A stretch of 32,000 bases of DNA from Candidatus Saccharimonadota bacterium (lineage in GTDB: Archaea; Nanohalarchaeota; Nanosalinia; Nanosalinales; Nanosalinaceae): the NCBI RefSeq assembly GCF_047555085.1, contig NZ_CP180230.1, positions 570,001 through 602,000 of the forward strand, given 5' to 3'. Each line of letters opens with the position of its first letter. Position 1 is the stretch's first letter. The translations under genes were made by a program, and so were the position numbers. Of the stretch, positions 1-32,000 are shown piece by piece. The notes under the pieces were generated by a model. The model had not been told where the DNA came from, ran no database searches, and saw nothing but the letters and a program-made list of their open reading frames with translations.

Positions 1-2128
1 CCTGCTCTGGGCCGCTGAAGAAGAGGCCTGCTATCAGAGTCCCCAGGAATATGAACATCACTTCCCCTGAGTTAGTCGAGAGCAACTGATTCGTGACTTT
101 TCTTATATTGTCGAAGACTGCTCGTCCTTCCGAGATAGCATCTCTTATAGTTACGAAGTTGTCGTCCTGTAGTACCATGTCGCTGCTTTTCTTGGCGACG
201 TCTGTTCCTCTCTGTCCCATGGCTACTCCGACATCCGAGTTTTTCAGCGCAGGCGCATCGTTCACTCCGTCACCTGTCATAGCCACGTTGTATCCGTGAT
301 CCTGAAGGGCCTGAGAGATTCTGACCTTATGTTCTGGAGAGACTCTTGCAAATATCTCTGTCTCCTTAACGGCCTCACCAAGCTCTTCATCACTCATCTT
401 CTCTATCTCCTGGCCGGTGATAGCTCCTTCAGGATCAAATCCAAGCTCCTTCCCTATAGCCTTCGCAGTCTCGATATTATCTCCAGTCGCCATGATCACG
501 CCGATACCTGCATTCCTGCAGTCATTAACTGCATCCTCTACTTCTTCACGTGCCGGATCTATGATTCCCTGAAGGCCCAGAAATACCATGCCACTTTCTA
601 TATCTTCTTCAGAGGCCTCGTCATCATCCAGATCTTTTCTTGCGAATCCAAGAACTCTCAAGGCCTCTCCTGCGTACTCATGATTCTTTTCAAGTATCTC
701 CTCTTTCTTCTCCTCAGTAAGCTTTTTCTCCTCGCCCTCAAGCAGGATCCTGTCACACCTGTCCAGGACTACTTCAGGCGCTCCCTTCATATAGGCCTGG
801 GAATCGTCAGTAACTACGGTCATCCTTTTCCTGTCAGATGAGAAAGGTATACTTCTGACACGTTCTTTATCGTTCTCTATGCCTGCCTTGAGGCCTGAAA
901 TCAACAAGGCCTTTTCAGTTGGTTCTCCACTGAATCCATCGTCTCTTTTCTCTGCATTGTTGCAGTAGACTCCACATTCAAGTACAGGCCTGAGATACTC
1001 CGAATCTATCTTTTCTCCGTCTTTTTTGAAAAGGCCTTGCGTTGATTCGCCTGTGCCTGTAACACTGTAGTCTTCTCCCTGGAAATGGACTTTTTCCACT
1101 GTCATTACGCCCTCAGTCAGAGTTCCTGTCTTATCGGTTACAATGTAGTTAACTGAGCCAAGTGCCTCAACTACTGGAAGACGCCTTACGAGAGCATTTT
1201 TATCTATCAACTTTCGGGAGCCCAGGGCCAGAGTTAAAGTAACTATAGCAGGAAGCGATTCAGGTATAGCCGCAACAGAGAGGCCTATAGCCAGTATGAT
1301 AACTGTTAATGGGCCTGCACCTGTCATAGTCGCCTGTATAAGTGCTGTTAAAGTGACTATGCCGACAACAAGATATCCTATCTTCTTTCCTAGAACATCT
1401 ACTTCCTCCTGGAACGGTGTCTGGCCACTATCTGCTTCCTCAAGCTCCTCCGCTATATCCCCTACCTCGGTATTCATGCCTGTATCCGTGACTATGGCCT
1501 TTCCACGGCCTTTCACCACGTGCGTGTTCATGAAAACCATGTTTGACTGTTCGGCTACTGCAGCTTCTTCATCAGTGACGCCAGGACTTTTTGACACATT
1601 CCGGCTCTCGCCCGTAAGCGCTGATTCATCAGTTGCAAGCGATTCACTCTCCAGAAGTCGTGCGTCAGCAGGAACAGCATCACCCTGCTCAAGATAGACA
1701 ATATCACCTGGAACGACCTGTGTGGAATCAACCTCCATCTTTTTACCGTCCCTCATCACTGTAGACTCCGGCGTCGCCATCTCTTTAAGAGCCTGAATCG
1801 ATTTCTCTGCCTTGTAATCCTGTCTGAACCCGAAAAGTGCATTAGCGAAAAGTATCAGAAATATTATCGCTGCTTCACGGTACTCAGGCGTATGATCCGG
1901 CAATAAACCTATGGAAAGAGAAAGTAAACCTGCTGCCATCAGCAGATATATCAGATTATCGTTAAACTGGCTGAATAAAATTTTCAGTGCAGAATCGGAC
2001 TTTTGTCCCTCTATCCTGTTTTCTCCCTGCTCCTCAAGCTTCTTTTCAGCCTGATCAGAAGTTAAACCTTCTTCACCGGATTCTAGACGGGAAAAAACCT
2101 CTTCTTCACTTAGTACATTCCATCCCAT
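1..2128 (-). CDS. P-type cation-transporting ATPase, type II-like (Ca2+/Mg2+-type); C-terminus cut by the window edge
   Basis: Absent from the ORF track because it runs off the left edge. My minus-strand translation starts at the ATG (complement of 2126-2128) and reads MGWNVLSEEEVFSRLESGEEGLTSDQAEKKLEEQGENRIE..., open all the way to position 1. It contains TGES (actuator), IPESLPA (TM4), DKTGTLT (phosphorylation site), KGAPE, MATGDN and GDGVNDAPAL. Confidence 0.9.
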   Translation of the reverse strand, partial: MGWNVLSEEEVFSRLESGEEGLTSDQAEKKLEEQGENRIEGQKSDSALKILFSQFNDNLIYLLMAAGLLSLSIGLLPDHTPEYREAAIIFLILFANALFGFRQDYKAEKSIQALKEMATPESTVMRDGKKMEVDSTQVVPGDIVYLEQGDAVPADARLLESESLATDESALTGESRNVSKSPGVTDEEAAVAEQSNMVFMNTHVVKGRGKAIVTDTGMNTEVGDIAEELEEADSGQTPFQEEVDVLGKKIGYLVVGIVTLTALIQATMTGAGPLTVIILAIGLSVAAIPESLPAIVTLTLALGSRKLIDKNALVRRLPVVEALGSVNYIVTDKTGTLTEGVMTVEKVHFQGEDYSVTGTGESTQGLFKKDGEKIDSEYLRPVLECGVYCNNAEKRDDGFSGEPTEKALLISGLKAGIENDKERVRSIPFSSDRKRMTVVTDDSQAYMKGAPEVVLDRCDRILLEGEEKKLTEEKKEEILEKNHEYAGEALRVLGFARKDLDDDEASEEDIESGMVFLGLQGIIDPAREEVEDAVNDCRNAGIGVIMATGDNIETAKAIGKELGFDPEGAITGQEIEKMSDEELGEAVKETEIFARVSPEHKVRISQALQDHGYNVAMTGDGVNDAPALKNSDVGVAMGQRGTDVAKKSSDMVLQDDNFVTIRDAISEGRAVFDNIRKVTNQLLSTNSGEVMFIFLGTLIAGLFFSGPEQ

Positions 2129-2302
2129 TCAATAACTGTAATATGCTATAGTCAAATTAAAAAGTAAATCCTAAAGGAAAGCCATATGCCGCAGATCGGG
2201 CCTGCCAATTTTTTCGAGCGATTACAGGCCTTGAAAAGAAATTTCAGGTATTTGTGATTCGTTCAATGAGAATGAGGGAAGGCCTACACAGGTAACCAAT
2301 CT

Positions 2303-2321
2303 GTTACTTGACGCAAGTAAC
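2303..2321. promoter_or_regulatory. Perfect 19-nt palindrome gttacttg-acg-caagtaac just upstream of an A/T-rich TATA-like element (about 2335-2349); candidate operator
   Basis: Read directly: 8-bp arms and a 3-nt centre. It sits in the 258-bp divergent intergenic region between the P-type ATPase (minus) and the histidine kinase (plus). A GGTGA Shine-Dalgarno lies at about 2371-2375. Confidence 0.35.
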
Positions 2322-2386
2322 AACATATATTTAAATTTTGTGGAACTTTTCTCTACTAGGCCTCTGGCCGTGGTGAAAAATCAAAT

Positions 2387-5329: not shown

Positions 5330-6124
5330 TTACCAGGGAGCAAAGCCTGGATCGACCATGCGTTCCTCTCTGTCTATAGAATCGATCTTCTGAACGTCTT
5401 CGTCGTCAAGCTCGAGATCAAGGGCCTCGTAGTTATCTCTAATGTGTTCCTCACTACTGGCTTTAGGAATAGCTACTACTCCATCTTTCTGCATCAGCCA
5501 GGCAAGACTTACCTGCGCCTCTGAGACATCATGCTTTTCTGCGACTTCCTGAATCTCTGGAACGTCAAATACCTCTCCACGTGCCAGAGGACTGTACGCT
5601 ACAAGAGTTACATCGTGTTCACGGCACTTTTCCAGAAGTTCCTCCTGCTGAAGCAACGGATGCATCTCGACCTGATTCGCGATGATGTGCTTCGGAGCTA
5701 TCTCCATCGCTTTATCCAGCTGTTCCGGAGTGAAGTTGCTGACACCGATGTTCCTGATTTCTCCACTGTGAACAAGCTCCTTGAAGGCCTTCAGAGTTTC
5801 CTGCGGACTGTAGTCTCCGGCAGGCCAGTGAACATACATCAGGTCAACGTAGTCGACTCCAAGCTTCTCTACAGATTCTTTTGTAGAGGCCTTCACGTTT
5901 TCCGGAGCCAGTTGATCGATCCAGACCTTCGAGGCCAGGAAGTAATCCTCTCTATCGACATCCGCGTCTTCGAGGCCTTTTCCGACGTCTTCCTCATTTT
6001 CGTATGCCTGAGCAGTATCTATATGCCTGTAGCCCATGTTGAGAGCTGTTTCCACGGATTTTGCGCATTCTTCAGGATCTGTGTTCTGCCAGGTTCCAAG
6101 GCCTAGCTTCGGTATATCAGTCAT
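5330..6124 (-). CDS. Aldo/keto reductase (2,5-diketo-D-gluconate reductase-like)
   Basis: LGLGTWQ, GYRHIDTAQAYENEEDVG, LMYVHWP and IGVSNF are classical AKR signatures. Confidence 0.9.
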   Translation of the reverse strand: MTDIPKLGLGTWQNTDPEECAKSVETALNMGYRHIDTAQAYENEEDVGKGLEDADVDREDYFLASKVWIDQLAPENVKASTKESVEKLGVDYVDLMYVHWPAGDYSPQETLKAFKELVHSGEIRNIGVSNFTPEQLDKAMEIAPKHIIANQVEMHPLLQQEELLEKCREHDVTLVAYSPLARGEVFDVPEIQEVAEKHDVSEAQVSLAWLMQKDGVVAIPKASSEEHIRDNYEALDLELDDEDVQKIDSIDREERMVDPGFAPW

Positions 6125-6201
6125 AAGTTATCACTTTCGTGCTTGAAAGAATTCTGGAAAGTTTACAAACCTTCACATTTCTCTGGAGTAACCGGATTGA
6201 A

Positions 6202-6232: not shown

Positions 6233-8008
6233 ATGGTACAGGAAAGAGAGGAAATAGAAGACAGTTACAAATGGAATCTTGAGGAAATGTTTTCAAGCGA
6301 TGAGGAATGGAGCGAAACTTTCGAACAGGCCTCTGAGGAAATCGAAAAATTTGATGAGTATAAAGGAAAAGTTACTGAGCCCGGCGAAACTTTACTTGAA
6401 GTCCTGAAGCTGCGTGAAAAAGTCAAGCGGAAGATCAAGAATCTGGCTTCGTACGCTCAGATGCGTTACGATCAGGATACACGGAATCAGGAGTATCAGG
6501 CGCTTAAATCCAAGGCCTCTACACTCTCATCCGAGTTTTCTTCTGCTACAAGCTTTATCGAGCCGGAGATCCAGGACGCTGGAGAGGAACGTATACAGGA
6601 ATTGATCGAGGAAGAGGAAGATCTGGAAGTCTACAGGCATTACTTCGATGATGTTCTGCGTTTCAGGCCTCACACACTGTCTAAAAGCGAGGAAAAGCTT
6701 GTTTCCTCTCTGGGTGATGTCCTGGATGCACCGGACGATGCGTACAAGATGCTGATGAACGCTGATATGACGTTCCCTGAAGTCCAGACGCCTGAAGGCG
6801 AAAAAGTCGAGATCACTCAGAGCAACTTCACAAAGTTCCTGAAGAACAGCGATAGAGAATTCAGAAAGGAAGTATACGAAAAGTTCTACGACGAGATCGA
6901 TACAGTGAGGAATACTGTAACTTCCACTTTCCAGAAGAACGTGAAGCGTAACGTCAAGATGGCGGATATACGTGACTATGATTCGGCGCGAGAGGCCTCT
7001 CTGTTCAGTTCAAATATTCCTGTAGATGTGTACGATAATCTTGTGGATTCTGTAGAGGCCAATCTCGATGCTTTACACAGACATCTCGAGTTGAAGGAGT
7101 CTGTGCTTGACGTCGATCAGTTAGGAATGGAAGATGTCTACATGCCGGTCGCTACTTCAGATGAGCCGGAGATAGATTTCGAGGAAGCGAAGGAGTACGT
7201 GTTAAAGGCTGTCGAGCCGCTGGGCGAGAAGTATCAGGAGGCGATGCGTGAAGGTCTTGAAAGCGGATGGGTTGATGTCTACGAGAATCGTGGAAAGCGT
7301 TCAGGAGCTTACTCCGGTGGAACATATGATTCGATGCCGTACATCCTCCTCAATTACCAGGACGATGTCAACTCTATGTATACACTTGCCCATGAACTCG
7401 GCCACTCCATGCATTCATACTTCTCCACAGGCAATCAGCCGTACGTATACGGCGGCTACAAGATCTTCGTCGCAGAAGTCGCATCGACAGTTAACGAGGC
7501 CTTGTTGACGAGATACCTGATGGAGAATGCGCCTGAAGAAGTCAGGAAACATGCTTTGAGCCATTACCTGGAAAATTTCAGGAACACGCTGTTCAGACAG
7601 ACGATGTTCGCAGACTTCGAACAACGTGTGCATGAGGAAGTTGAGGATGGCGAAGCACTGACCTCGAAGAAACTGAATGAGATGTATGGAGGCCTGAAGG
7701 AGGATTACTACAGGCCTGCAGATGTGGATGAGCGTATCGAGAGGGAGTGGATGCGTATCCCGCATTTCTACTACAACTTCTACGTCTACCAGTACGCTAC
7801 AGGTATCTCTGCTGCAGAGACGCTTGTAGAAAAGATCAAAGATGAAGGGCCTGAAGACTACATCGAATTCCTGAAGACAGGATCATCCAAGTATCCACTG
7901 GAGGCCCTGAAAGTTGCAGGTGTAGACATGGAGGATCCTGAAGCAGTAGAGAAAGCTATAGAACATTACAGGGAACACATAGAGAAAGGAGAGGAAATGT
8001 TCGAATAG
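6233..8008 (+). CDS. pepF: Oligoendopeptidase F (M3B family metallopeptidase)
   Basis: 591 aa with the HExxH zinc site in TLAHELGHSMH. Overall length and layout are typical of PepF. Confidence 0.9.
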   Translation: MVQEREEIEDSYKWNLEEMFSSDEEWSETFEQASEEIEKFDEYKGKVTEPGETLLEVLKLREKVKRKIKNLASYAQMRYDQDTRNQEYQALKSKASTLSSEFSSATSFIEPEIQDAGEERIQELIEEEEDLEVYRHYFDDVLRFRPHTLSKSEEKLVSSLGDVLDAPDDAYKMLMNADMTFPEVQTPEGEKVEITQSNFTKFLKNSDREFRKEVYEKFYDEIDTVRNTVTSTFQKNVKRNVKMADIRDYDSAREASLFSSNIPVDVYDNLVDSVEANLDALHRHLELKESVLDVDQLGMEDVYMPVATSDEPEIDFEEAKEYVLKAVEPLGEKYQEAMREGLESGWVDVYENRGKRSGAYSGGTYDSMPYILLNYQDDVNSMYTLAHELGHSMHSYFSTGNQPYVYGGYKIFVAEVASTVNEALLTRYLMENAPEEVRKHALSHYLENFRNTLFRQTMFADFEQRVHEEVEDGEALTSKKLNEMYGGLKEDYYRPADVDERIEREWMRIPHFYYNFYVYQYATGISAAETLVEKIKDEGPEDYIEFLKTGSSKYPLEALKVAGVDMEDPEAVEKAIEHYREHIEKGEEMFE

Positions 8009-13232: not shown

Positions 13233-13628
13233 CTACTTGAACTCTCTTATCTCCCTGCTTTCACGCAGGATATCGCCTATGTCCTCCATCCTGTCCAGAT
13301 CCACTGTCTGTGGCATATACTTATCCGGAGAGGAAGACTGCGTCCTGACATCGACTACCTCCAGTTCCTGAAGAGCGTTAAGACAAGAGGCCGCTACAGG
13401 AACAGTCATGGGGAAATTATCAGCTACACGTGAAGAAGTAAATGACACCGATTTTTTCTCAGAGAAGTATCTCAAAGCAGACTTCATCAAGTAAAAATTT
13501 CTGGAAAGATAGTCAAAGCTCCTCCCGTTGAAATCCTTCAAGTCCTCGATCTCTCTCCTCAAATCCTTTTCAGCCGAACTCATCTCTACTGCGATAACAA
13601 CAGTTCGAAAGCCGTAGATAAAAAACAT
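13233..13628 (-). CDS. Hypothetical protein, possibly a small winged-helix DNA-binding protein; alternative start at 13583 (MSSAEKD...)
   Basis: The segment SFTSSRVADNFPMTVPVAASCLNALQELEVVDV looks like a helix-turn-helix plus wing. This is a weak, composition-level call. Confidence 0.35.
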   Translation of the reverse strand: MFFIYGFRTVVIAVEMSSAEKDLRREIEDLKDFNGRSFDYLSRNFYLMKSALRYFSEKKSVSFTSSRVADNFPMTVPVAASCLNALQELEVVDVRTQSSSPDKYMPQTVDLDRMEDIGDILRESREIREFK

Positions 13629-13643
13629 ACCGGGAACAGCAAA

Positions 13644-13738
13644 GGCCTCAACACAGGCCTCTGAAAAACAGTTTCAAGGCCTGAAAAATCGTTTGAGGAG
13701 TTTTAACTCCAGAAAATTCTTCCAGAAAATTTCCTGGA
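13644..13738. promoter_or_regulatory. Repeat-rich divergent control region: three AGGCCT copies, a direct repeat TCCAGAAAATT x2, and the inverted repeat TCCAG-N8-CTGGA
   Basis: Read directly. aggcctcaacacaggcctctgaaaaacagtttcaaggcctgaaaaatcgttt spans about 13644-13695. tccagaaaatt occurs at 13708-13718 and 13721-13731. tccagaaaatttcctgga lies at 13721-13738. Confidence 0.35.
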
Positions 13739-13783
13739 TTTTTTACAGATAGGATTATATTCTTGATGCTGGAAGAAATAGCT

Positions 13784-14206
13784 ATGGGAAGACGAATCTA
13801 TTCAGAGGTAGAAACTTTTACAGAGACAACTACTGATTACAGGAAATGTATGTTTCGGATGAAGCAGAAAGATTTCGACTTCCACAACAAAGAAGTGAAA
13901 GCTGTAAAGTTCAAGGGCGGAGTAAAGCACGGATTCATCAAATCCATGATCTGTAAAGCCCTTGACGATGCCGGGCATTACTACGTGACGGAGAAAGAGT
14001 TCGACAACGGAAGAGAGGCCGACATATACGACGCAAGTATCGACACAGTGATAGAAGTTGAGACAGACTGTTCTCCAGGAGACAGGAAGAAGAAACTGGA
14101 TGATTTCGGATCAAGCGTCAAAGAAGTATTTATTATAGATCCTAATAACTGGCCAGATGACTATAAAGAGGCCTACGAGAAGGCAAAGGAAGAATTCTGT
14201 GTCTAG
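13784..14206 (+). CDS. Hypothetical protein with a possible PD-(D/E)xK-like nuclease core
   Basis: I moved the start to the ATG at 13784 (MGRRIYSE...) because attatatt at 13754-13761 then sits at -30..-23, the spacing seen at other genes. EADIYD-x6-IEVE followed by RKKK resembles, but does not strictly match, a restriction-endonuclease-fold motif. Confidence 0.45.
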   Translation: MGRRIYSEVETFTETTTDYRKCMFRMKQKDFDFHNKEVKAVKFKGGVKHGFIKSMICKALDDAGHYYVTEKEFDNGREADIYDASIDTVIEVETDCSPGDRKKKLDDFGSSVKEVFIIDPNNWPDDYKEAYEKAKEEFCV

Positions 14207-16022: not shown

Positions 16023-16058
16023 CTGAGTTTCTTCTGTCTGAAGAATTACGATAGTGTG

Positions 16059-16087
16059 AGGCCTGGCCGGATATTTTTTCCAGGCCT
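16059..16087. other. Perfect 8-bp inverted repeat AGGCCTGG-N13-CCAGGCCT between rpl40e and tRNA-Thr; possible hairpin (terminator or processing signal)
   Basis: Read directly. The arms are built from two AGGCCT copies and the loop is ccggatatttttt. Confidence 0.3.
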
Positions 16088-16103
16088 CTGAATTAAAAAT
16101 TTT

Positions 16104-18813: not shown

Positions 18814-19630
18814 CACTCTCCCCCAGTAGATTGATTATACGTCTTATCCTGTCTATGTCTTCTTCCAGTTCATCTATTTCCTCGTCCATCAGCTCATTGA
18901 TCTCGTCTTCAGCATCTGATAGAATTCTTATAACTTGTTCAAGTTCTCTGGCAGTTGTCTCGGCTTCTTCATCGGCCTCTTCTTCCTCGCCTTCATCTAT
19001 TTCATCTTCTTCACGGGCCTCTTCTTCCTCGATCTGCTCTTCTTCGGTTTCTGCCCTGTCCAGTGCTTCTTTAGTGGCCTCTATACCTTCCACCATCTGT
19101 CCGACACCGCTTGAAGTGGCCTTAACTGATGCTCCGGTAATGTAAGCTGATCCTGCTATAGTTCCTCCGACTCCTCCGATAAGTATGAACAGTGTTCCTG
19201 CAAGGATCATGAATGTGAATGCGAGAAGAATCATTGACTGCCAGCCTCTTATCAGGCCTGTGAATCCTGCTGATCCAACTACGGTAAGCGTTATCAGTAG
19301 TGTAAGTACCGCAAGTACGTTTCTGCTATCATCGTCTGTAAGGCCTACAGCATCCTGGAACGGCGTGTCCATGTTGCTGTCTTCGAGGTTCTTATCGAGG
19401 TACTGGAGCGCTATCTTGAAGATTACGTATGCGGATACCCACATAACGGAGAATGTTGCGAGTATGCCAAGCACGTGGTATGGTTCCGAGACTCTTATTC
19501 CGAATACCTGTGATAGAAGTTCTGGAAGAGATGCAGATCCATACCCGTAGTATCCTCCGTTAGTTATCTGTGCAGATGTGGATGGTATGAAGGCTGTAAA
19601 CAGTAAAACCAGTTTTCTCCAGCGCCCCAT
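18806..19630 (-). CDS. Cluster gene C: signal peptide, 3 TM helices, then an acidic coiled-coil tail (short paralogue of gene A)
   Basis: The N-terminal 160 aa are collinear with gene A: signal peptide ending TSAQITNGG, helices LGILATFSVMWVSAYVIF, VLAVLTLLITLTVVG and the identical GLIRGWQSMILLAFTFMI. The tail then carries ARELEQVIRIL. Confidence 0.8.
   Translation of the reverse strand: MGRWRKLVLLFTAFIPSTSAQITNGGYYGYGSASLPELLSQVFGIRVSEPYHVLGILATFSVMWVSAYVIFKIALQYLDKNLEDSNMDTPFQDAVGLTDDDSRNVLAVLTLLITLTVVGSAGFTGLIRGWQSMILLAFTFMILAGTLFILIGGVGGTIAGSAYITGASVKATSSGVGQMVEGIEATKEALDRAETEEEQIEEEEAREEDEIDEGEEEEADEEAETTARELEQVIRILSDAEDEINELMDEEIDELEEDIDRIRRIINLLGESDE
19206..19258. repeat. 53-nt block nearly identical (2 mismatches) to 22904-22956; encodes GLIRGWQSMILLAFTFMI in gene C
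   Basis: Compared directly: atcatgaatgtgaatgcgagaagaatcattgactgccagcctcttatcaggcc versus atcatgaacgtgaatgcgagaaggatcattgactgccagcctcttatcaggcc. Confidence 0.85.
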
Positions 19631-19653
19631 GCCGTAAAATTATCGGTTCGTGG

Positions 19654-19661
19654 TTATAAGA
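19654..19661 (-). promoter_or_regulatory. TATA-like box (minus strand tcttataa) at -24..-31 of the gene C ATG
   Basis: Read directly. A T-run (ttcttcttttttg on the minus strand) lies further upstream, just downstream of the gene B stop. This suggests C-D-E is its own transcription unit. Confidence 0.4.
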
Positions 19662-19724
19662 GTTTACAAGAAAACGGCGTTTTCAATCAAAAAAGAAGAA
19701 TAAGAAGGGAGAAGTCAGGATGGC

Positions 19725-21110
19725 TCAGGGCATCCTGGCCATGCTTTCTATCTCTTCCCTGAACTCCTCGACAGCATCGTATTCTTCGCCAGTAGCATCT
19801 TCTACGTGAGACTGGACTCTCTCCGTCAGCGAATGGATGCCATAATCGTCCTCTGCAGTGATATCATCAAGGCCAAGGTGATCGTACAGACCTACAACTT
19901 CATCAAGACGTGTACCAACACGTACATCTTCCTCATCAAGCCTGTCTGTTATTGCTTCAGCTGCCTGTGCGTAATCCGTTACTGCATCCTCCAGGTAGTC
20001 GATTCTTGTCAAAGCACGCTTTGCAACTGCATTGGCTGCTCTGCTGATATCCTGTACTACGCCCTGCTGGTCCTGTGAAAGCTCCGGTGAGCCTGGAAGT
20101 GTTTCTGGAACAGATTTAGCTTCATAAACGTCGCGCATGTTCCCAAGGCTGGATAGTGTGATGAAAAGATCCTCTATGCTCTCTGCCTGATCCTCAACAT
20201 ACTCTATCACATCGGTAGAGAACTCAACATGAACCTCTTCAAGTTCATCCATCCTGTCCGTTCTCTCTGAGACAAGATCCTGTTTCTCATCCTTGAGTGT
20301 AGAACGCTGTTCCTGAGCATCAGATCTAACTTCCTGTTTCTCCTCTTCAAGCTCTTCACGGCGCTCCTCATACTCGGATTCAGCCTCTTCCACAGTAGTT
20401 CTGAAGCTTCCCGAGATATCATCCCATTCCTGCTGCCACATATCATTCGTCTCATCGTAGGACGACTCATCAAGATCAGAAGTGGACATGCCAGAAACCT
20501 GAGACTTCAGATCTCCAACTTCTTCCTCCTTCTCCCGTTCAGCCTGCTCAATACGCTCATCTCTTCTTTCCTCAGCCTGCTCAATCTCCTGCTCAATCTC
20601 ATCAACACGCTCCCGCTCCCTGTCGGAAACATTGCTTATCAGGCCTGTAAACTGCTGGACCTGTGATGAGAGAGTATCAACAGCAGCAGAGTTGGACTGG
20701 AGATATTCCATCAAGCTCTGATCCTCATCAGCAAACTCGATGCGCTCTCCATCCTCCTCAAGATACTTTAAATCAACCAGCTCCCACTCATCATCTACTT
20801 CTGCAAGACCTGTCTCACGGGCATCCGCAAGGAACCTGTTAACAGGCTGATTCTCATCACCAGCTCTGCTTTCAAGCCTGCTCTTCAGATCACGGAACTG
20901 TATTTCTCTCTGTCTCTGTTTCCCAAGCGCATTGCCGTACTCCGACTCAGCACTCTGGGCCTCTCTAGCAAGTTCATCTTCATCAAGAACATTTGCATTA
21001 GCATGAGTTCCAGCACGTCTGTTCGCAGGATTTCCATTAACCTCAGCCTCTCTCCCTTCAAGTTCAAAACCAAATTCTTCCTCTACAGTCTCCTCTCCAT
21101 TATCATCCAT
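19725..21110 (-). CDS. Cluster gene B: highly acidic soluble coiled-coil protein (461 aa), unknown function
   Basis: Long ORF with no TM helix and extended Glu/Asp/Arg-rich helical repeats. A GGTGA Shine-Dalgarno lies 7 nt upstream of the ATG. Confidence 0.7.
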   Translation of the reverse strand: MDDNGEETVEEEFGFELEGREAEVNGNPANRRAGTHANANVLDEDELAREAQSAESEYGNALGKQRQREIQFRDLKSRLESRAGDENQPVNRFLADARETGLAEVDDEWELVDLKYLEEDGERIEFADEDQSLMEYLQSNSAAVDTLSSQVQQFTGLISNVSDRERERVDEIEQEIEQAEERRDERIEQAEREKEEEVGDLKSQVSGMSTSDLDESSYDETNDMWQQEWDDISGSFRTTVEEAESEYEERREELEEEKQEVRSDAQEQRSTLKDEKQDLVSERTDRMDELEEVHVEFSTDVIEYVEDQAESIEDLFITLSSLGNMRDVYEAKSVPETLPGSPELSQDQQGVVQDISRAANAVAKRALTRIDYLEDAVTDYAQAAEAITDRLDEEDVRVGTRLDEVVGLYDHLGLDDITAEDDYGIHSLTERVQSHVEDATGEEYDAVEEFREEIESMARMP

Positions 21111-21231
21111 ATTGTAATCACCAGGGTATAGTAAAGCACGTGAGAATTATATACTTAATCCTGGCCTTAGATTTGAACAGAATCATTTAAGACCACTGAG
21201 AAAAATTATGATCGCTGCTAGGACGTCTTCA

Positions 21232-23313
21232 TTAACTCTCAAACGTGTAAAAAACTTCTTCAATTCTCTCTCTTTCAATATTCCTGAAAACGTCTCCTGT
21301 TGCCGGGCAGAAGCACACGCCAATACTCTCCGTGTCAACGAACACACAAGGAAAAACACCGCCGCCTACACGATAAAAACCGAGGCTGACAAACGCATCA
21401 TCAATGAAATCCCTGACAGGCCTCCATGCACCAACTTTGGAGCTGTTAAGCTCATCTACAAGCCTGTGATCATATATAGGCCTGAAGTTATGGATAAGGA
21501 ATCCAAGATAAACCGCATTCACAAGATCAGAATCAAAACGCAGAGAATCAAACGCTTCGGACAGCAAAATATTCTTCCTGTCCCTATCAGGAATTTTTGA
21601 AGAATTTATATCGCTATTTATGGACTCGAAGACATTAACAAGCTCTTCACCAACCTTGCTTTTCCTGCTTATGTCTCTGGACTTGATAAAATTCCTTATG
21701 TCTCCTTCAAATCTTTTGATAAGGCCTCTGGATTTCTTATCAAATTCAAAAGCTTTTTTGCCAGTATGGCTTCCTGCCGACATACCGATATCTACTTTCA
21801 AAGTTGTATTGCTTTTTCCGGAAGGAAAAATAGTTAGTCCAGGCCTTATCGAAGCTTCAGCTTCTGCTTCGCTGTCAAAACTTACAAATTTGGCTGTACT
21901 GATGCCAGTACTGCTTGAGTCGATGATCTGTTCTGTCAGTATTTTTCTTACATCTATTGCGTTTCTTAGGGCGTCAAGGCCTCCTATATGGGATTCAAGC
22001 TCCTTGATGTGCTCCTCTAAATCTTTCAGTCTTTCGTCCATATCTCTTATGCGCTCAAGTTCTTTCTTCAGCTCCTTCAGTTGATTTATCTCGTACTCGT
22101 ATTCTTCTGCAATTTTTCTCCTGTTTCTGGATGACTCCAGATGATCTATTAGCTCTTGAAGATCTTTTTCCTCATCCACAGCATGGCCTATCTCGGCCTC
22201 AAGGCCTTCGATTAAATCCTGTAACTCGCTGTAAATCCTGTTGTTGGCCTCCAAGTCAGATACCTGATTTTTCAATCTTTCAAGTTCATTCAGGTACTGC
22301 TCCAGCAAGTCCAGTTCCTCTTCCGTGACCGGCAAAGCTCCTGCAGAATTTATTATATCTCTGAAACGTGCTTCAGCTTCACCTGAGGCCTCGTTAAGTG
22401 AAAGAAGCTCTTCCAGTTCATCCCTACTTATTTCAAGTCTCTCTACTACATTCCTGAGATTTTCGAATCCTTCATGTCCCTCCTGTACTCCAAGAGCTCT
22501 CAGTAACTCTTTCAAGGCCTGCAAATCATTTTTCAGATTTTCAAGCTCTGTGCTGATACTTCCCTCTATCCTGTTCTCTATATCCTCGATCAACTGTATG
22601 ACTCTTTCAAGCCTGTTAGCTATATCCTCTAACTCTCTTTCTACTTCACTCGCTCCACGACTGCCTGTATCTGTTGAACTGTCAGTATCGCCTTCCTCTT
22701 TTCTTCGTGCATCATCCTCTTCCCTGTCGATGCTTTCCTCAAGTTCCTCGACTTCATCCTCTTCCCCTCTTATCTTCTCAACCTCTTCTGAGGCCTCTTT
22801 CACTCCTCTGGCAACTGATTTAGCGGATTTACCGAGTAGATATCCGCCGCCTCCCAGTATAAAGCCTGTGCCTCCTATAAGTACGAACATCAGGCCTGCT
22901 ATAATCATGAACGTGAATGCGAGAAGGATCATTGACTGCCAGCCTCTTATCAGGCCGTAAAACGCTCCTGTGCCGATGACGCTGAGAGTTACAAGTAGAG
23001 TGAGTACCGCCAGAATATTCCTGTCCTCGCTCCTGGCAATTCCAAATGCGTCAGCAAATCCGTTGCGTCCGTCAAGGCCTTCATCCAGCTTCCCTATAGC
23101 TATCTTGAAGATTAAATACGCGGACAGCCACATCAGGCCGAAAGTAGCAAGCAGTCCTATCAGTTCTGTAGGATTTCCGATGTTGATCCCCAGTAGTTCT
23201 GATAGAAGAGCAGGTATAGACGCTGTGCTTCCGAAGCCTCCTCCGGTTATCTGCGCAGAGGCCTCAGACAAAAGAAGCGAAAACACAAGTACTAGCTGGG
23301 AAAGCCTCTTCAT
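21232..23313 (-). CDS. Cluster gene A: signal peptide, 3 TM helices, about 280 aa of coiled coil, and an unknown C-terminal globular domain of about 230 aa
   Basis: 693 aa. The signal peptide ends EASAQITGGG and the TM helices are paralogous to gene C. RELEDIANRL sits at aa 226-235. The C-terminal domain (STGISTAKFVSF...FYRVGGGVFPCVFVDTESIGVCFCPATGD...) matches nothing I recognise. Confidence 0.8.
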   Translation of the reverse strand: MKRLSQLVLVFSLLLSEASAQITGGGFGSTASIPALLSELLGINIGNPTELIGLLATFGLMWLSAYLIFKIAIGKLDEGLDGRNGFADAFGIARSEDRNILAVLTLLVTLSVIGTGAFYGLIRGWQSMILLAFTFMIIAGLMFVLIGGTGFILGGGGYLLGKSAKSVARGVKEASEEVEKIRGEEDEVEELEESIDREEDDARRKEEGDTDSSTDTGSRGASEVERELEDIANRLERVIQLIEDIENRIEGSISTELENLKNDLQALKELLRALGVQEGHEGFENLRNVVERLEISRDELEELLSLNEASGEAEARFRDIINSAGALPVTEEELDLLEQYLNELERLKNQVSDLEANNRIYSELQDLIEGLEAEIGHAVDEEKDLQELIDHLESSRNRRKIAEEYEYEINQLKELKKELERIRDMDERLKDLEEHIKELESHIGGLDALRNAIDVRKILTEQIIDSSSTGISTAKFVSFDSEAEAEASIRPGLTIFPSGKSNTTLKVDIGMSAGSHTGKKAFEFDKKSRGLIKRFEGDIRNFIKSRDISRKSKVGEELVNVFESINSDINSSKIPDRDRKNILLSEAFDSLRFDSDLVNAVYLGFLIHNFRPIYDHRLVDELNSSKVGAWRPVRDFIDDAFVSLGFYRVGGGVFPCVFVDTESIGVCFCPATGDVFRNIERERIEEVFYTFES
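22904..22956. repeat. Partner of the 53-nt conserved block at 19206-19258 (gene A copy)
   Basis: See 19206-19258. The flanking paralogous sequence is much more diverged at the nucleotide level. Confidence 0.85.
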
Positions 23314-24378: not shown

Positions 24379-24463
24379 AGCTTTCTGGAAGTTTTCTCTC
24401 TTTTTTCTTTACTTATTTAGTATTGGAGGCCTCTCCTATCTTCATGAGAAATGGTGAAATCAG

Positions 24464-25786
24464 ATGAGCGTGAATCTTGAAAGTCTGAAAGGGACGTACG
24501 ACAGGTATCCTGGTGAATGGGCGTCTTGGAGGAAACTGATAGATGTTGTTGATGAAACAGCTGGAGAGTTCGGATTCCGGCAGTTGAATCCTCCGACGAT
24601 CGAGAGACAGGAGTTATGGACGGAAAAAGAGGAGGACTCTGTTACAGACGAGATGTATGCCTTCACGGATAAAGGCGGTAACGAGATAACACTTATTCCT
24701 GAGCAGACTCCTACAAGAGCTAGATTGATTCAGAAGAGAAAAGATCTGAAAAAGCCTGTGAAATGGTACGACACCTCCAAGAGATGGCGTTACGAAGACG
24801 TCACACGCGGAAGAGACAGAGAATTTTTGCAGGGAGACTTCGATATCTTCGGAATACAGTCAGTCGAGGCCGATGCCGAGATAATCACAGCAGCAGCCAT
24901 CATCTACAGAAAACTGAGCAAGGAGACTGAAACAGATCTTACTGATCGCATCGTATTCAAGATCAGTGACAGGCAGATAGTTGAAGGATTCCTCGAACTA
25001 AACGACATCCCTGAAGTTGAGGAAGTCATGAAAGTCATTGATGATGAGGAGAAGATGAAAAGAGAAGAGTTCATCGAGGAACTTGAAGAACTGGGCCTGA
25101 AACAGGAGGAAATCAGGAAAGTAGACGATCTTATGAATGTCTCCGGTGCTGATAACGAGCAGCAGCTGGAGGAACTGGAAAAAATCGCTCCAGAACAGCT
25201 ACAGGGCCGTATAGACAGGATGCGTTCCCTTGTAGAAGCCCTGGATGCCTACGGAGTCTCAGACATGATAGAAATCGACCTATCTATCGTCAGAGGCCTG
25301 GCATACTACACAGGCCTTGTGTTCGAGGCCTTTGACTCTGAAGGCGAGCTTCGTGCTTTATTCGGAGGTGGAAGATACGACGAGCTTGTGGGCGAGTTCG
25401 GAGATCAGGATGTTCCTGCTGTAGGGTTCGCATTCGGATACTCCACGACTATCGAACTCCTGAAGAAGGAAGACGAGTGGCCTCTGAAGGAGATCGAGAC
25501 GGATGTCTACGTTCTCTCAGTCAGCGACAGCGTGAGAGACATCGCTCTTGATTATGCAACAAAATTAAGGAGTGAAGGCCTATCCGTGGAAACAGATCTT
25601 GCCGGAAGAGGATTCGGAACACAGCTGGGATACGCTGACGACATGAACGCGGAAAGGGTGCTGATCATCGGTGAGAGAGATCTGGAAAACGATGAAGTCA
25701 CGATGAAGCACATGGATTCTGGCGAAGAGGAGACACTGGATAGAGATGAAGTAATAGAGCATCTGAAATCAGAAGAATTTATCTGA
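24464..25786 (+). CDS. hisS: Histidine--tRNA ligase
   Basis: Class II motifs: LIPEQTPTRARL, RWRYEDVTRGRDREFLQGDFDIFG, RGLAYYTGLVFEAF and GGGRYDELV. A GGTGA Shine-Dalgarno lies 6 nt upstream. Confidence 0.92.
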   Translation: MSVNLESLKGTYDRYPGEWASWRKLIDVVDETAGEFGFRQLNPPTIERQELWTEKEEDSVTDEMYAFTDKGGNEITLIPEQTPTRARLIQKRKDLKKPVKWYDTSKRWRYEDVTRGRDREFLQGDFDIFGIQSVEADAEIITAAAIIYRKLSKETETDLTDRIVFKISDRQIVEGFLELNDIPEVEEVMKVIDDEEKMKREEFIEELEELGLKQEEIRKVDDLMNVSGADNEQQLEELEKIAPEQLQGRIDRMRSLVEALDAYGVSDMIEIDLSIVRGLAYYTGLVFEAFDSEGELRALFGGGRYDELVGEFGDQDVPAVGFAFGYSTTIELLKKEDEWPLKEIETDVYVLSVSDSVRDIALDYATKLRSEGLSVETDLAGRGFGTQLGYADDMNAERVLIIGERDLENDEVTMKHMDSGEEETLDRDEVIEHLKSEEFI

Positions 25787-27082: not shown

Positions 27083-28279
27083 ATGCCTTACAAAATCGGA
27101 TTAGTAGGAAAGCCTTCTGTAGGAAAATCCACATTCTTCAATGCAGCGACGATGAACTCTGTCGATGAAGGAAACTATCCCTTCACAACTATCGATCCAA
27201 GTGTGGGAGAGGCCTACGTACGTGTAGACTGTGCAGCACCGGACTTCGACGAAGAATGCGATCCACGAGTAGGATTCTGCCACGACGGCATCAGGCATGT
27301 CCCCGTCAAACTTGTCGATGTAGCAGGATTGATTCCAGGAGCTCACGAAGGTAAAGGCCTTGGCAACAAGTTCCTGACAGATCTTAACGAGGCCGATGTA
27401 CTGATTCACATCGTGGATTTTTCCGGTGAGACAGATATCGAGGGAGAGCCGACGGAAGGTCACGATCCACGGGAAGATATCGATTTCCTGGAAGAGGAGC
27501 TTGACATGTGGTACCTGGAGATCCTGGAGAAAGGGATCGAGAGATACGAGTCAAAGATGAATCAGCAGGACGTGAAGCTTGAGGAAGAGTTAGCGGAGCA
27601 GATGTCTGCCTTCAAGACTAACAAGAACGAGATCAAACAGTTAATTTTACAGGAAGGCCTTGAACTTGATCCTGATACCTGGGATGAGGAAGACAGAAAA
27701 CAGCTTGCACGGACGATCCGTAAAGAGACCAAGCCGATGATCGTCGCAGCGAATAAAATGGATACAGAAAAGGCCCAGGAAAACTTTGAGGAGATCACTT
27801 CTGATCCGGAGTACGAGCATCTTGACTTTGTACCGGCCTCTGCTCACGCTGAGAAGGCCCTGAAGAATGCTGCAGAACAGGACGTCGTTGATTACTATCC
27901 GGGAGATGAAGATTTCGAAATTTTAACGGATGACTTGCCTGAGGAGAAAAGTAAAGGCCTTGAACAGATCAGAGAGTTTATGGATAAGTACGGCGGTACA
28001 GGCGTACAAAAGGCCTTGGAAGACGCACTGTTCGAGGAATTAGGAGTTATGGCTGTCTTCCCTGGAGGTGCTGACGGACTGGGCGACGAACACGGCAATA
28101 TCTTGCCAGACTGCTTCCTTGTTCCAGAAGGTGCGACTGCTGAAGACTTCGCGTATACTATCCACAGTGATCTTGGGGAAGGATTCATTCATGCTATTGA
28201 TTGCCGTGAGAATCGTCAGATAGGCGCCGATCACGAGCTTGAGCATACTGATGTCATCGAGATTGTGTCTTCTAACTAG
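27083..28279 (+). CDS. ychF: Obg-family P-loop GTPase/ATPase, YchF/OLA1-like, with a C-terminal TGS domain
   Basis: G1 GLVGKPSVGKSTFFNAAT, NYPFTTIDPSVG, G3 DVAGLIPGAHEG, G4 ANKMD, and a C-terminal TGS-like LVPEGATAEDFAYTIHSDLGEGFIHA. Confidence 0.85.
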   Translation: MPYKIGLVGKPSVGKSTFFNAATMNSVDEGNYPFTTIDPSVGEAYVRVDCAAPDFDEECDPRVGFCHDGIRHVPVKLVDVAGLIPGAHEGKGLGNKFLTDLNEADVLIHIVDFSGETDIEGEPTEGHDPREDIDFLEEELDMWYLEILEKGIERYESKMNQQDVKLEEELAEQMSAFKTNKNEIKQLILQEGLELDPDTWDEEDRKQLARTIRKETKPMIVAANKMDTEKAQENFEEITSDPEYEHLDFVPASAHAEKALKNAAEQDVVDYYPGDEDFEILTDDLPEEKSKGLEQIREFMDKYGGTGVQKALEDALFEELGVMAVFPGGADGLGDEHGNILPDCFLVPEGATAEDFAYTIHSDLGEGFIHAIDCRENRQIGADHELEHTDVIEIVSSN

Positions 28280-28292
28280 AAAAATTATTTAG

Positions 28293-28314
28293 AGGCCTGT
28301 AAAATTTCAGGCCT
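28293..28314. terminator. AGGCCT-N10-AGGCCT potential hairpin between the convergent ychF and membrane-protein stops
   Basis: Read directly (aggcctgtaaaatttcaggcct). The motif is self-complementary, so the two copies can pair into a 6-bp stem. Confidence 0.3.
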
Positions 28315-28654
28315 GTTTCTTGCTTAATCTTAGTAATAGAGCTGTCGGGAGTCCCAGGAAAATTGCTGTTACAAACGTTATGGTAGTCCAGAACTCTTCT
28401 CCAAGCGGGTACGATGTCAGAGGCCCGGCTACAACCAGTGCAACTCCTACCACACCGTATAGATCAAGGAGTGATTTGTATCTTTTTGCTCCGCCGACAA
28501 ACAGGCCTGCAGAGATCATAAGCACGCCGTAGAGAACGGTTATAAGCTGATCCATCATAGGGAAAGTTATATCGATGGGAAGCATTCCGAAAGTGACTGG
28601 CGCGGTTACAAACACAAGTCCAAGTATGACTGCGGAGACAGATCTCTCACTCAT
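28307..28654 (-). CDS. Small multi-TM membrane protein (115 aa)
   Basis: I truncated the track ORF (28307-28777) to the ATG at 28654 (MSERSVSAVILGL...). The longer form would overlap the nfi start and its promoter. The protein has three or four hydrophobic helices. Confidence 0.55.
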   Translation of the reverse strand: MSERSVSAVILGLVFVTAPVTFGMLPIDITFPMMDQLITVLYGVLMISAGLFVGGAKRYKSLLDLYGVVGVALVVAGPLTSYPLGEEFWTTITFVTAIFLGLPTALLLRLSKKQA

Positions 28655-28746
28655 GCAACAGTTTAACGTGAAAGAAGTTGAAAAACACTTTGGAGCCGGA
28701 CAAATCTTTTTAGCAAATAAAACAGAAAGAAACTGCAGAAGAAGAT

Positions 28747-29484
28747 ATGGAACCTGTAAATCCTGAACTAGTGCCACGGAAAGGCCTCAAGAAAGAGGAG
28801 ATGAAGAATCTACAGAGAAATATAGCGGAGAAAGCAGTATTCCAGGACAGATTCAAGTTCAGTGCAGAAAGGCCTGAAGAGCTGACAGTGGCCGGAGTAG
28901 ATCAGGCCTTTACCGACGATAAATCCGTCAGCGCAGCCGTTGTCATGGAGGACGGCGAAGTAATCGAAGAGGCCTCCGCAGCCGCTGAACTCGATATACC
29001 GTACATCCCCGGACTTCTGGCATTCAGGGAAGGCGAGTCGATAGTCAAGGCCCTGGGAAATCTTGATGCGGAACCTGATATTCTTTTTCTGGATGGAAGC
29101 GGGCGTATACACTTCCGAGAGGCCGGTATTGCCACGCACATAGGAGTGATATTTGATGAACCTTCTATAGGGATCGCAAAGAATCTTCTCTGCGGTGAAA
29201 CCAGCTGGAACGGCGGAAAACTTGAGCAGGGTCGTAAAATACCGGTCACAGCCAGTGAAAAAGTTGAAAACACAGAGAACGGGGAAATAATCGGGTACAC
29301 ATTCCAGTCAAAGCAGTACACCGGCGACAGAAAAATCAATCCGCTTTACGTAAGTCCCGGCCACAGAATCAGCGCTGGCTCATCAGTGAAGATTGTGGAA
29401 GAGTTCTGCCAGAACTACAAACTTCCTGAACCTACCAGACTTGCGGATAAACGTGTAAGTGAACTCAAAGACGAATACCGGTAG
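28747..29484 (+). CDS. nfi: Endonuclease V (deoxyinosine 3' endonuclease)
   Basis: VAGVDQAF, PYIPGLLAFREGE, LFLDGSGRIHFREAGIATHIGV, IGIAKNLL and YVSPGHRIS are canonical EndoV blocks. Confidence 0.9.
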   Translation: MEPVNPELVPRKGLKKEEMKNLQRNIAEKAVFQDRFKFSAERPEELTVAGVDQAFTDDKSVSAAVVMEDGEVIEEASAAAELDIPYIPGLLAFREGESIVKALGNLDAEPDILFLDGSGRIHFREAGIATHIGVIFDEPSIGIAKNLLCGETSWNGGKLEQGRKIPVTASEKVENTENGEIIGYTFQSKQYTGDRKINPLYVSPGHRISAGSSVKIVEEFCQNYKLPEPTRLADKRVSELKDEYR

Positions 29485-29538: not shown

Positions 29539-29612
29539 GGGCTCTTAGTTCAGCTTGGCGGAACGCTTCCTTGGCAGGGAAGAGGCCTCGGGTTCAAATC
29601 CCGAAGAGTCCA
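29539..29612 (+). tRNA. tRNA-Ala (anticodon GGC), no encoded CCA
   Basis: Hand-folded: acceptor GGGCTCT/AGAGTCC including the G3:U70 alanine identity pair, anticodon arm CTTCC-TTGGCAG-GGAAG, T arm TCGGG-TTCAAAT-CCCGA. The variable region contains an AGGCCT copy. Confidence 0.9.
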
Positions 29613-30804: not shown

Positions 30805-30829
30805 AATTTTTTACAGGCCTCTACGTTAA

Positions 30830-31507
30830 TTATTGATCTTCCAGGAATTTTTCCTTCAAGTTTTCGACTTCTGTGATCTCTCTAGTTATTTTTCCATCTT
30901 TAAGGAAGAAAACTCTATCGCATACCTCTTCTGCCAGGGAGATAACGTGTGTGCAGAGGAAGACTGTGCCTCCGTTGTCTCTTCTCTCCTTGAAAACTTT
31001 CTTGGCCTCTTCCTGGACTACAGGATCAAGATTGACGAGAGGCTCATCGATGAAAACAATCTCTGGATCATGGAAGAAGGCCTGAGTAATCATAAGTTTC
31101 TGTCTCTCTCCCTTGGAAAGATTGCGCGTCTGACTATCCATTTTTCCCTCCATGTTCAGTCTTTCTATCCAGGCCTGTTTATCGATTTCAGTATCCCTTG
31201 TATCTGAGACAAAGTCGAGGTATTCGCTGCCCGTCAGAAAGCTAGGCGGATCCTCTCTTTCCGGGAGTATGCCCATTTTTTCACGGGCCTCTACAGGATT
31301 TTCCGATGGATCTATTCCAAGTATCTCTGCAGTTCCTGCATCCGATTTCATCTGGCCTGTCAGTATCTGGATTAAAGTAGATTTCCCTGCGCCATTCGGG
31401 CCAAGTACACCGACTATCTCGCCCTCCTCCACTTCAAGATCGATGCCGTCAAGCGCTTTTACATCACCGAAACTTTTCTTCAGGCCTTTAACTTCGATAA
31501 GAGACAT
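30830..31507 (-). CDS. ABC transporter ATP-binding protein
   Basis: Walker A GPNGAGKST, signature LSKGERQKL, Walker B IVFIDEP, H-loop CTHV. Confidence 0.9.
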   Translation of the reverse strand: MSLIEVKGLKKSFGDVKALDGIDLEVEEGEIVGVLGPNGAGKSTLIQILTGQMKSDAGTAEILGIDPSENPVEAREKMGILPEREDPPSFLTGSEYLDFVSDTRDTEIDKQAWIERLNMEGKMDSQTRNLSKGERQKLMITQAFFHDPEIVFIDEPLVNLDPVVQEEAKKVFKERRDNGGTVFLCTHVISLAEEVCDRVFFLKDGKITREITEVENLKEKFLEDQ

Positions 31508-31605
31508 TGTTTGAACACTTATTCAGGCCTGTATAAATTGGTTGGGGGATGGAGTGAAGGAACAGTGGTTTAAGTTTAAATGCAGAAGTTCTTCTCTGTA
31601 CTGCG

Positions 31606-32000
31606 ATGAATCCTCAGGAAAGCGATAATGTTCTAAAGCACATACAGAGCGACAAGAAAAAGGTTTCAAACTTTCTCGATAACTATCTGGATGAATGGGA
31701 GGAGATGGAGCCTGATGCAAGCCGCTGGAGATCAGACATCAAGGGAAGAATGAAGGAAATGGCGAAAGGCGGCAAAATGGTGCGTGGCGCACTTGTACTT
31801 AAAACAAATAATTTCTACGACGGAAAAAATACAGATGAGGCAGTAAAAGTTGCCGGAGCGATTGAACTTCTGCATACAGGCCTCCTCATGCACGACGATA
31901 TAATCGACAAAGACGATTACAGGAGAGGGATGCCGACTTTCGCCAAGCAGTATCAGGAACTTGGTGAAGACGAGGATCTTGACAACGTCGAGCATTTCGG
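31606..32000 (+). CDS. Polyprenyl (geranylgeranyl) diphosphate synthase; 3' end cut by the window edge
   Basis: Absent from the ORF track. My translation reads MNPQESDNVLKHIQ...GGKMVRGALVLKT...AGAIELLHTGLLMHDDIIDKDDYRRGMPT, which contains the first Asp-rich FARM motif plus RRG. Confidence 0.85.
   Translation, partial: MNPQESDNVLKHIQSDKKKVSNFLDNYLDEWEEMEPDASRWRSDIKGRMKEMAKGGKMVRGALVLKTNNFYDGKNTDEAVKVAGAIELLHTGLLMHDDIIDKDDYRRGMPTFAKQYQELGEDEDLDNVEHF

Follow-up and report, generated by a model that had tools for sequence, protein, structure and literature searches.

The highly iterated palindromes (HIPs) of cyanobacteria are the closest described counterparts of the short sequence word treated here. 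They comprise HIP1 (GCGATCGC) and the alternates GGCGCC, GCCGGC/rCCGGy and GCsGC (Elhai 2015, PMC4390886; Xu et al. 2018, PMC5861425), and every cyanobacterial genome with an alternate HIP has a methyltransferase able to modify it (PMC4390886). Elhai's explanation is a ratchet, by which replication errors that create a site are fixed by methyl-directed repair (PMC4390886). After some thirty years HIPs are still an open puzzle, and their cause is disputed between a by-product of repair, a role in the nucleoid and a signal for transformation. Here we describe a comparable word, AGGCCT, in a stretch of 32,000 bases (the window; contig NZ_CP180230.1, positions 570,001 to 602,000) with a GC content of 46.0%, the sole sequence of its source genome that was analysed. 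The GTPase encoded in the window shares 76–92% identity with its counterparts in Nanohaloarchaea (DPANN) and about 70% with those from Halobacteria, and the window is, judging from such matches, chromosomal DNA of a nanohaloarchaeon. Its housekeeping genes include hisS, pepF, a copA-type ATPase gene, a YchF-related GTPase gene, tRNA-Thr and tRNA-Ala. Relatives were compared through loci of about 20 kb (designated by L numbers).

Several other systems also shape the frequency of short words. In E. coli, a skew of CCWGG-related words is attributed to Dcm methylation with very-short-patch (VSP) repair by Vsr, and an archaeal pair acting on GGCC, M.MthTI and the T:G glycosylase Mig.Mth, is carried by the Methanothermobacter plasmid pFV1. 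The uptake signal sequences (USS) of Pasteurellaceae and the DNA uptake sequences (DUS) of Neisseriaceae are 9–12 nt long, non-palindromic and frequent as inverted pairs in terminators; they are dispersed on both strands, in all reading frames and in non-coding DNA, and they affect the encoded peptides. Active restriction systems normally cause avoidance of their targets. The genome of Alcanivorax borkumensis SK2, by our own estimate, measures about 3.1 Mb at a GC content of about 55%. It has a StuI-type system using the very word AGGCCT, for which 1674 motifs were reported (PMC12128166). From that number and the estimated genome size and GC content, AGGCCT is not strongly enriched in this bacterium, unlike in the nanohaloarchaea described below.

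What is new here is a HIP-like word in DPANN archaea that is close to saturation, randomly spaced and phylogenetically on or off. With about 4 copies per kb it is also some four times as dense as HIP1, HIPs having roughly 1 per kb. By saturation is meant the fraction of opportunities, i.e., peptide contexts able to encode AGGCCT by synonymous codons, that actually encode it. Like HIPs, AGGCCT is a short, GC-rich palindrome in more than 10-fold excess, and its copies are scattered over spacers and over genes, in all frames, without belonging to any larger repeat. The one-letter deviations from AGGCCT in the window concentrate at its first and last letters, the pattern seen with HIP1 (PMC4390886), and its sporadic gain and loss among related genomes recalls the alternate HIPs. 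Unlike HIPs, it is a different word in a different domain of life, it comes near to saturating its synonymous opportunities, and it shows random short-range spacing at positions not demonstrably conserved beyond chance, whereas Xu et al. reported conserved positions and a periodicity of 10–90 kb (PMC5861425). In cyanobacteria the main correlate of a HIP is its cognate methyltransferase, and none was found for AGGCCT in the DNA searched (see below). In the literature searched, no report was found of an over-represented AGGCCT in an archaeon, nor any paper joining Nanohaloarchaea with this word. We tentatively regard AGGCCT as a lineage-specific highly iterated palindrome of the nanohaloarchaeal chromosome, an archaeal counterpart of the cyanobacterial HIPs that may have arisen through a sequence-specific enzyme recognising AGGCCT.

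Abundance and distribution of AGGCCT in the window

AGGCCT is the commonest of all 4,096 hexamers in the window, with 134 copies, or one per 239 bp. The original prediction, a note made from the sequence alone, had put the number at about 130 (one per 240 bp) against an expectation of about 6 at roughly 45% GC, and both figures were close to the mark. Chance expectations were derived from base composition, from Markov models of several orders and from 100 dinucleotide-preserving shuffles. Independent bases give 6.5 copies and an order-1 Markov model 8.0, while the shuffles gave 8.18±2.89 with a maximum of 16, so that the excess over chance is about 17-fold. Tested against the maximal-order Markov model, as had been suggested with the prediction, the exact count is nominally near expectation (130, observed/expected 1.03), but this test is uninformative because it conditions on AGGCC and GGCCT (173 and 187 copies, each about 7.7-fold over-represented), which themselves carry the AGGCCT signal. 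Models of lower order expect 8, 26 and 71 copies.

About half of all GGCC tetramers had been thought to lie within the hexamer, and the count bears this out (134/248, 54%). Given GGCC, the flanking A and T are roughly independent of each other in the window (odds ratio 1.43, p=0.26). The other enriched genomes show a strong coupling between them (odds ratio 4.0, p=7e-11), and therefore the full hexamer is the unit. One-letter variants of AGGCCT in the window occur at 2.2–4.5 of expectation when the first or last letter is changed, and at 0.14–0.86 when a central letter is changed. Other enriched genomes show this less strongly, with outer variants at 1.2–1.7 and central ones at 0.5–1.05; such near-baseline values are what a force acting reversibly on the whole word should produce, be it selection or a bias in conversion or repair.

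Inside genes there are 115 copies, and 19 lie wholly or partly outside. When synonymous codons were permuted within each gene (200 shuffles), the coding count fell to 20.3±4.0 with a maximum of 36, and when codon order was permuted it fell to 9.5±3.0. All three frames are used, with 16 copies read as Arg-Pro, 45 as [K/E/Q]-Ala-[F/L/S/Y/C/W] and 54 as x-Gly-Leu; the corresponding saturation is 89%, 61% and 68%, and 68% overall. These two results agree with the original prediction of a frame-independent signal at the level of DNA rather than a codon or dipeptide artefact. The figure of 68% holds for every gene without significant deviation, which gives no sign of recent import anywhere in the window; a foreign island was rejected on the same evenness. 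Non-coding DNA is denser in AGGCCT (6.9 per kb) than coding DNA (3.9 per kb). The data show that a strand-symmetric, DNA-level force favours complete AGGCCT about equally in genes, in their different frames and in non-coding DNA.

The gaps between copies fit an exponential distribution (Kolmogorov–Smirnov p=0.58), gaps shorter than 30 bp number 11, no more than the 15.7 that random spacing would give, and the counts per kb are slightly under-dispersed (variance/mean 0.77). A profile of 12 bp to either side of the word shows no conservation, the flanking positions reaching at most 0.17 bit, and the only preferences are the avoidance of T at −1 and of A at +1. The lack of extended context and the random spacing indicate a bare, scattered hexamer, which speaks against a repeat element and equally against a terminator or a positioned operator.

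Occurrence among relatives and probable effects on proteins

AGGCCT is the top hexamer in SG9 (L007, CP012986.1), in NHA29 (L008) and in loci L005, L023 and L025, where it is 13–20-fold over-represented and uses 54–75% of opportunities; the saturated genomes include, besides SG9 and NHA29 (JALDAN01), BLK6-1.bin.86 (JAWOFP01) and B1-Br10_U2g29 (LKMQ01). M3_22 (L001, CP046106.1) and L009 are intermediate (26–36% of opportunities), the intermediate genomes including DAL-WCL_22_75C1R, the baseline sisters include JBEQBC01, JACOQA01 and CAZSAB01, the other nanohaloarchaea are at baseline (1–19%), and all 54 haloarchaeal loci show the word at about 1-fold. A search of metagenomes with pepF returned mostly haloarchaeal contigs and one further AGGCCT-rich contig (L216), in which the word is again the top hexamer at about 8-fold and no methyltransferase is present. 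In a tree of these relatives built from the GTPase and HisRS, the saturated genomes fall into three clades interleaved with baseline lineages. Comparison with related genomes, which had been recommended with the original prediction, thus finds the word enriched in some lineages and at baseline in their sisters, and on the evidence of these loci and this tree it shows that enrichment has repeatedly been turned on or off among these archaea. The trait is thus labile in evolution, which would fit dependence on a gene subject to gain and loss.

Two of the non-enriched loci, L012 and L014, avoid GGCC (11 copies against 35 expected, and 9 against 55), which suggests that active GGCC-cutting restriction systems exist in some lineages of the phylum. 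This is true target avoidance, and unlike a restriction target AGGCCT is over- and not under-represented. The closest homologue of the window GTPase (92% identity) is found in L002 (JBLGBK010000010.1), which is labelled 'MAG: Colwellia polaris', a marine bacterium; since L002 also has hisS and DUF4186 orthologues in the nanohaloarchaeal arrangement, it is probably mis-binned or mislabelled.

Comparison of individual sites gives some insight into how copies arise. At a conserved RGL tripeptide, enriched genomes have AGGCCT and non-enriched relatives have AGGTCT, AGGACT or AGGGCT. The nearest relative of the window is L008 (69% amino-acid identity), and the two share 30 opportunities, at 15 of which both use AGGCCT, compared with 12.7 expected if use were independent (p=0.11). 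The same non-significant trend was seen in the small samples available from L007, L025 and L023. Conservation of AGGCCT positions as such is not demonstrable between genomes. Opportunities present in only one member of the pair were used at least as often as shared ones (14/20 and 19/22), and so copies are being created continually in each lineage.

Overall use of opportunities is 68% in the window compared with 6% in sister genomes (odds ratio 32, log-odds about 3.5), and in spacers the excess is about 30-fold, given a sister-genome baseline estimated at about 0.2 copies per kb. The similar size of the force in coding DNA and spacers suggests that it is uniform and weak per site. The word may also have left its mark on proteins. 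Gly-Leu stands at 1.44–1.57 of expectation in enriched genomes and at 1.17–1.18 in non-enriched relatives, and Arg-Pro at 1.11–1.51 and 0.76–0.85; of the reversed dipeptides, Leu-Gly is almost the same in both groups and Pro-Arg is reduced in the window. Tripeptides that offer an opportunity are more frequent across enriched loci than across non-enriched ones (17.5 and 11.2 per 1000 codons, p=2e-5), although gene content differs between the loci. In conserved genes, amino-acid identity is not lowered at motif codons (0.77, against 0.74). The AGGCCT force has probably changed less-constrained protein positions toward Gly-Leu and Arg-Pro, for which these data are suggestive but not proof. In practical terms, the word distorts codon and dipeptide usage and biases binning and phylogenetic signals that are based on k-mers, and it could serve as a clock for the residence time of acquired DNA.

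Possible causes of the enrichment

Under the HIP-like interpretation proposed above, the enzyme recognising AGGCCT would most plausibly be an orphan, StuI-type cytosine methyltransferase, whose mark would bias mismatch repair, recombinational repair or DNA exchange. Changes that create a full AGGCCT would then be fixed and changes that destroy one reverted, and gain or loss of the enzyme would start or stop the accumulation of copies. This is the same type of ratchet as Elhai's for cyanobacterial HIPs. Methyltransferases specific for AGGCCT do exist, as in A. borkumensis SK2 (PMC12128166), and in a REBASE survey the single restriction-modification-related gene of M3_22 is an orphan type II methyltransferase predicted to form N4-methylcytosine (m4C) (PMC10609329). 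Together with the GGCC systems that appear to circulate in the phylum and the methyltransferases that accompany alternate HIPs in cyanobacteria, these enzymes lend circumstantial support to a link with methylation.

Several points weigh against this interpretation. Neither the window nor about 470 kb of related nanohaloarchaeal DNA yielded a methyltransferase, a Vsr or another candidate enzyme. Pfam and NCBIfam scans of 30 window proteins gave no methyltransferase or Vsr, and no candidate came from phmmer searches with E. coli Dcm and Vsr, or from motif searches, in all open reading frames (ORFs) of 27 nanohaloarchaeal genome loci and five low-GC metagenome loci taken as nanohaloarchaeal. The sole matches of the methyltransferase search, two type IIG Eco57I-like enzymes in L009 and L010, were judged irrelevant. 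As no enzyme gene was located, the mechanism stays inferred. To our knowledge, no methyl-directed mismatch repair has been described in Archaea, and the ratchet proposed by Elhai is still a hypothesis. A single methylome has been described for a nanohaloarchaeon, and it deals with a different motif, GDGCHC, of which that genome has few copies (PMC10266531, PMC11001535). Within three highly conserved orthologous genes, opportunity tripeptides show no significant excess (p=0.12). Finally, word frequencies at equilibrium would look alike under a repair or conversion bias (drive) and under weak selection on each copy.

Nanohaloarchaeal genomes, at about 1 Mb and with lineages that are saturated, half-way and at baseline, would offer a far simpler comparative system than cyanobacteria, in which a gene whose presence and absence tracks AGGCCT enrichment could identify the responsible enzyme directly. 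It is also predicted that enzymes of the StuI and HaeIII types would cut this DNA very densely unless it is modified.

AGGCCT might instead tag self DNA for exchange, being preferred in uptake or recombination and accumulating by molecular drive or selection, with or without methylation. We consider this unlikely. All six positions are under force, and both strands, all frames, non-coding DNA and the encoded peptides are affected, much as with USS and DUS, where molecular drive can explain accumulation without a benefit from each copy. In cyanobacteria, HIP1 has been reported to make transformation more efficient, an effect that depends on homology and methylation (bioRxiv 10.1101/2024.09.10.611283), and its abundance to correlate with type IV secretion proteins (bioRxiv 10.64898/2026.06.24.733823); the giant surface proteins of nanohaloarchaea carry VirB4/TraG-like ATPase domains (PMC10266531). 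However, a palindrome of 6 bp discriminates poorly, and unlike the longer, oriented and often terminator-paired uptake sequences, AGGCCT shows no excess of close pairs. Neither competence nor a DNA uptake system is known in these organisms, and the patchy loss among sister lineages would require an exchange system to have been lost repeatedly.

Nanohaloarchaea are cell-attached DPANN archaea that meet host or foreign DNA. A bolder version of the exchange idea, which we think quite improbable, would make AGGCCT a functional 'self' mark by which a recognition system (methylation with a reader, or an uptake or recombination machine) tells the symbiont's DNA from host or foreign DNA, the mark having spread by molecular drive. 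If true, this would give archaea an analogue of uptake sequences or of Chi-like self-recognition, and HIPs a second, independent origin.

A further alternative is that the word is the binding site of an abundant chromosomal protein, with a weak role per copy in nucleoid architecture, condensation or segregation and a copy number kept up by selection. One site per about 240 bp, even distribution over all genes and the slight under-dispersion of counts would suit such a protein, and Xu et al. argued for a nucleoid role of HIP1 (PMC5861425). Against it stand the exponential spacing and the lack of demonstrable positional conservation beyond chance between the window and L008, and sister lineages live without AGGCCT, which is unexpected for a core architectural system; a role of this kind is thus distinctly unlikely.

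The original prediction had offered a VSP-type repair bias among its explanations. Of the classes of explanation named with it, a methylation-linked bias, an uptake or recognition tag and an architectural motif all stay in contention. Cytosine methylation in GGCC or AGGCCT followed by T:G-specific repair (Vsr- or Mig-like) would drain GGTC/GACC into GGCC, and the window does resemble the Dcm/Vsr and M.MthTI/Mig.Mth systems in its putative methylated-cytosine context and in the depletion of the expected words. GGTC/GACC occurs at 0.28 of expectation in the window (55 copies against 197) and 0.40 in L008, across all flanking contexts, AGGTCT/AGACCT at 0.38 and 0.46, respectively, and GGCC with one correct flank is enriched 2–4.5-fold in the window. 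The excess of AGGCCT is nevertheless an order of magnitude too large. A neutral simulation of the most extreme case, in which every T at the methylated position is corrected to C at once, reached at most 3.2-fold (hexamer context) or 2.8-fold (tetramer context), compared with the roughly 17-fold observed, and such repair has no means of favouring A and T at the flanks. In the other saturated genomes GGTC/GACC is little depleted (0.73) and AGGTCT/AGACCT not at all (0.92), and no homologue of Vsr, Mig or a C5-methyltransferase was detected in the DNA searched. As the sole cause, VSP-type bias is highly improbable; a VSP-like process may at most form a second layer in the clade of the window and L008.

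As a separate observation, GGTC/GACC stands at 0.7–1.0 of expectation in other nanohaloarchaea, and the BsaI-type word GGTCTC/GAGACC is depleted in the window only (2 copies against 21 expected). The depletion of GGTC/GACC could stem from a VSP-like drain into GGCC, from restriction avoidance acting separately or from a shift in codon usage.

Lastly, we give next to no credence to a by-product of codon usage or favoured peptides, or to a small mobile or repeated element of the repetitive extragenic palindrome (REP) or miniature inverted-repeat transposable element (MITE) type: the higher count left by synonymous than by codon-order shuffling means that peptide content contributes a little, but even the maximum of the synonymous shuffles falls far short of the observed count, non-coding DNA is densest, no sequence is conserved outside the six bases, and non-enriched relatives encode the same tripeptides otherwise.

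Individual sites and other words

The sites that stand out by their position or folding are collected in Table 1. Three close pairs or clusters outside genes or at gene ends fold into stems of about 7–12 bp. These are the second and third copies of the cluster at 13643..13682 (−11.3 kcal/mol, z=−4.7), the pair at 16058..16088 (−9.9 kcal/mol, z=−4.7), which lies just upstream of tRNA-Thr (15950–16022, −), and the pair at 28293..28314 (−7.0 kcal/mol, z=−3.8), which is missing at the same place in L008. The hairpins anticipated from closely spaced copies therefore exist but are trivial, close pairs not being in excess, and a hairpin or terminator role was rejected as a general explanation on the same ground.

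Table 1. Selected AGGCCT sites in the window (positions within the 32,000 bases).
Feature	Position	Strand	Details
pepF	6233–8008	+	AGGCCT in all three frames: 6327 (xAG-GCC-Txx, Q-A-S), 7690 (xxA-GGC-CTx, G-G-L), 7712 (AGG-CCT, R-P)
Three AGGCCT copies within 40 bp	13643..13682		Spacer of divergent genes 13233–13628 (−) and 13763–14206 (+)
AGGCCT pair as 9-bp inverted repeat GAGGCCTGG ... CCAGGCCTC	16058..16088		3′ end of ORF 16046–16252 (−)
Block CTTATTTAGTATT(G/A)GAGGCCT upstream of hisS	24404..24432	+	Aligned with L008 ~6110–6139; hexamer at 24427
Three AGGCCT copies within 38 bp in hisS (24464–25786)	25294..25331	+	Copies lie inside the gene
AGGCCT pair, 7-bp stem	28293..28314		Between convergent 3′ ends: YchF-like GTPase 27083–28279 (+), ORF 28307–28777 (−)
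AGGCCT in tRNA-Ala(GGC)	29583..29588	+	Junction of variable loop and T-stem

Some details of the original prediction needed correction. The use of all three frames within pepF was right, with the Arg-Pro copy placed at about 7722, some bases away from its true position. The copy in tRNA-Ala is present, not at 29581 but at the coordinates in Table 1. The copies listed as intergenic all exist; those at 16059 and 16082, however, lie inside the small conserved ORF 16046–16252 (−), and the copy at 28309 overlaps the stop codon of ORF 28307–28777.

The tRNA-Ala sequence is identical in L008. The non-enriched L012 has a different isoacceptor, with AGGCCC and a compensating change, and as this is the sole non-enriched comparison, the tRNA copy was rejected as evidence of drive on RNA genes. 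Upstream of hisS, the AT-rich block was kept between the window and L008 while the surrounding spacer diverged; it is probably a promoter with a TATA-like box, with AGGCCT just downstream.

On the reverse strand, positions 16321–23313 are occupied by a run of five large genes (450, 380, 274, 461 and 693 aa) with little or no family assignment, which include two coiled-coil SMC/Rad50-like proteins and one protein with a RamC N-terminal-like domain. The run shows only partial synteny with L008 and L016.

No recognisable nanohaloarchaeal virus was present among viral contigs scanned for triple AGGCCT clusters, the matches being mainly tandem repeats and chance occurrences. Two IMG/VR viral contigs with a GC content of 36% (L082 and L140) do have dispersed AGGCCT. 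The commonest words of L082 are TTAAGG, TAAGGC and AAGGCC (15–16 copies in 3.6 kb), which suggests that an unrelated virus or host of low GC content has an iterated word of its own, longer than AGGCCT.

Other words also deviate from expectation in the window. CCTGTA/TACAGG is over-represented (52 copies against 9.4), with 12 of the 52 adjoining AGGCCT, and it is 2–5-fold over-represented in most nanohaloarchaea regardless of their AGGCCT status. GTATAC is in excess in the window only (14, against 2.4 expected). Several palindromes are nearly absent, namely CTAG (36 observed/137 expected), CAATTG (0/8.7), CTTAAG (1/10.4), ATTAAT (1/7.6) and CCTAGG (0/5.8), and CTTAAG is avoided in every nanohaloarchaeal locus checked.

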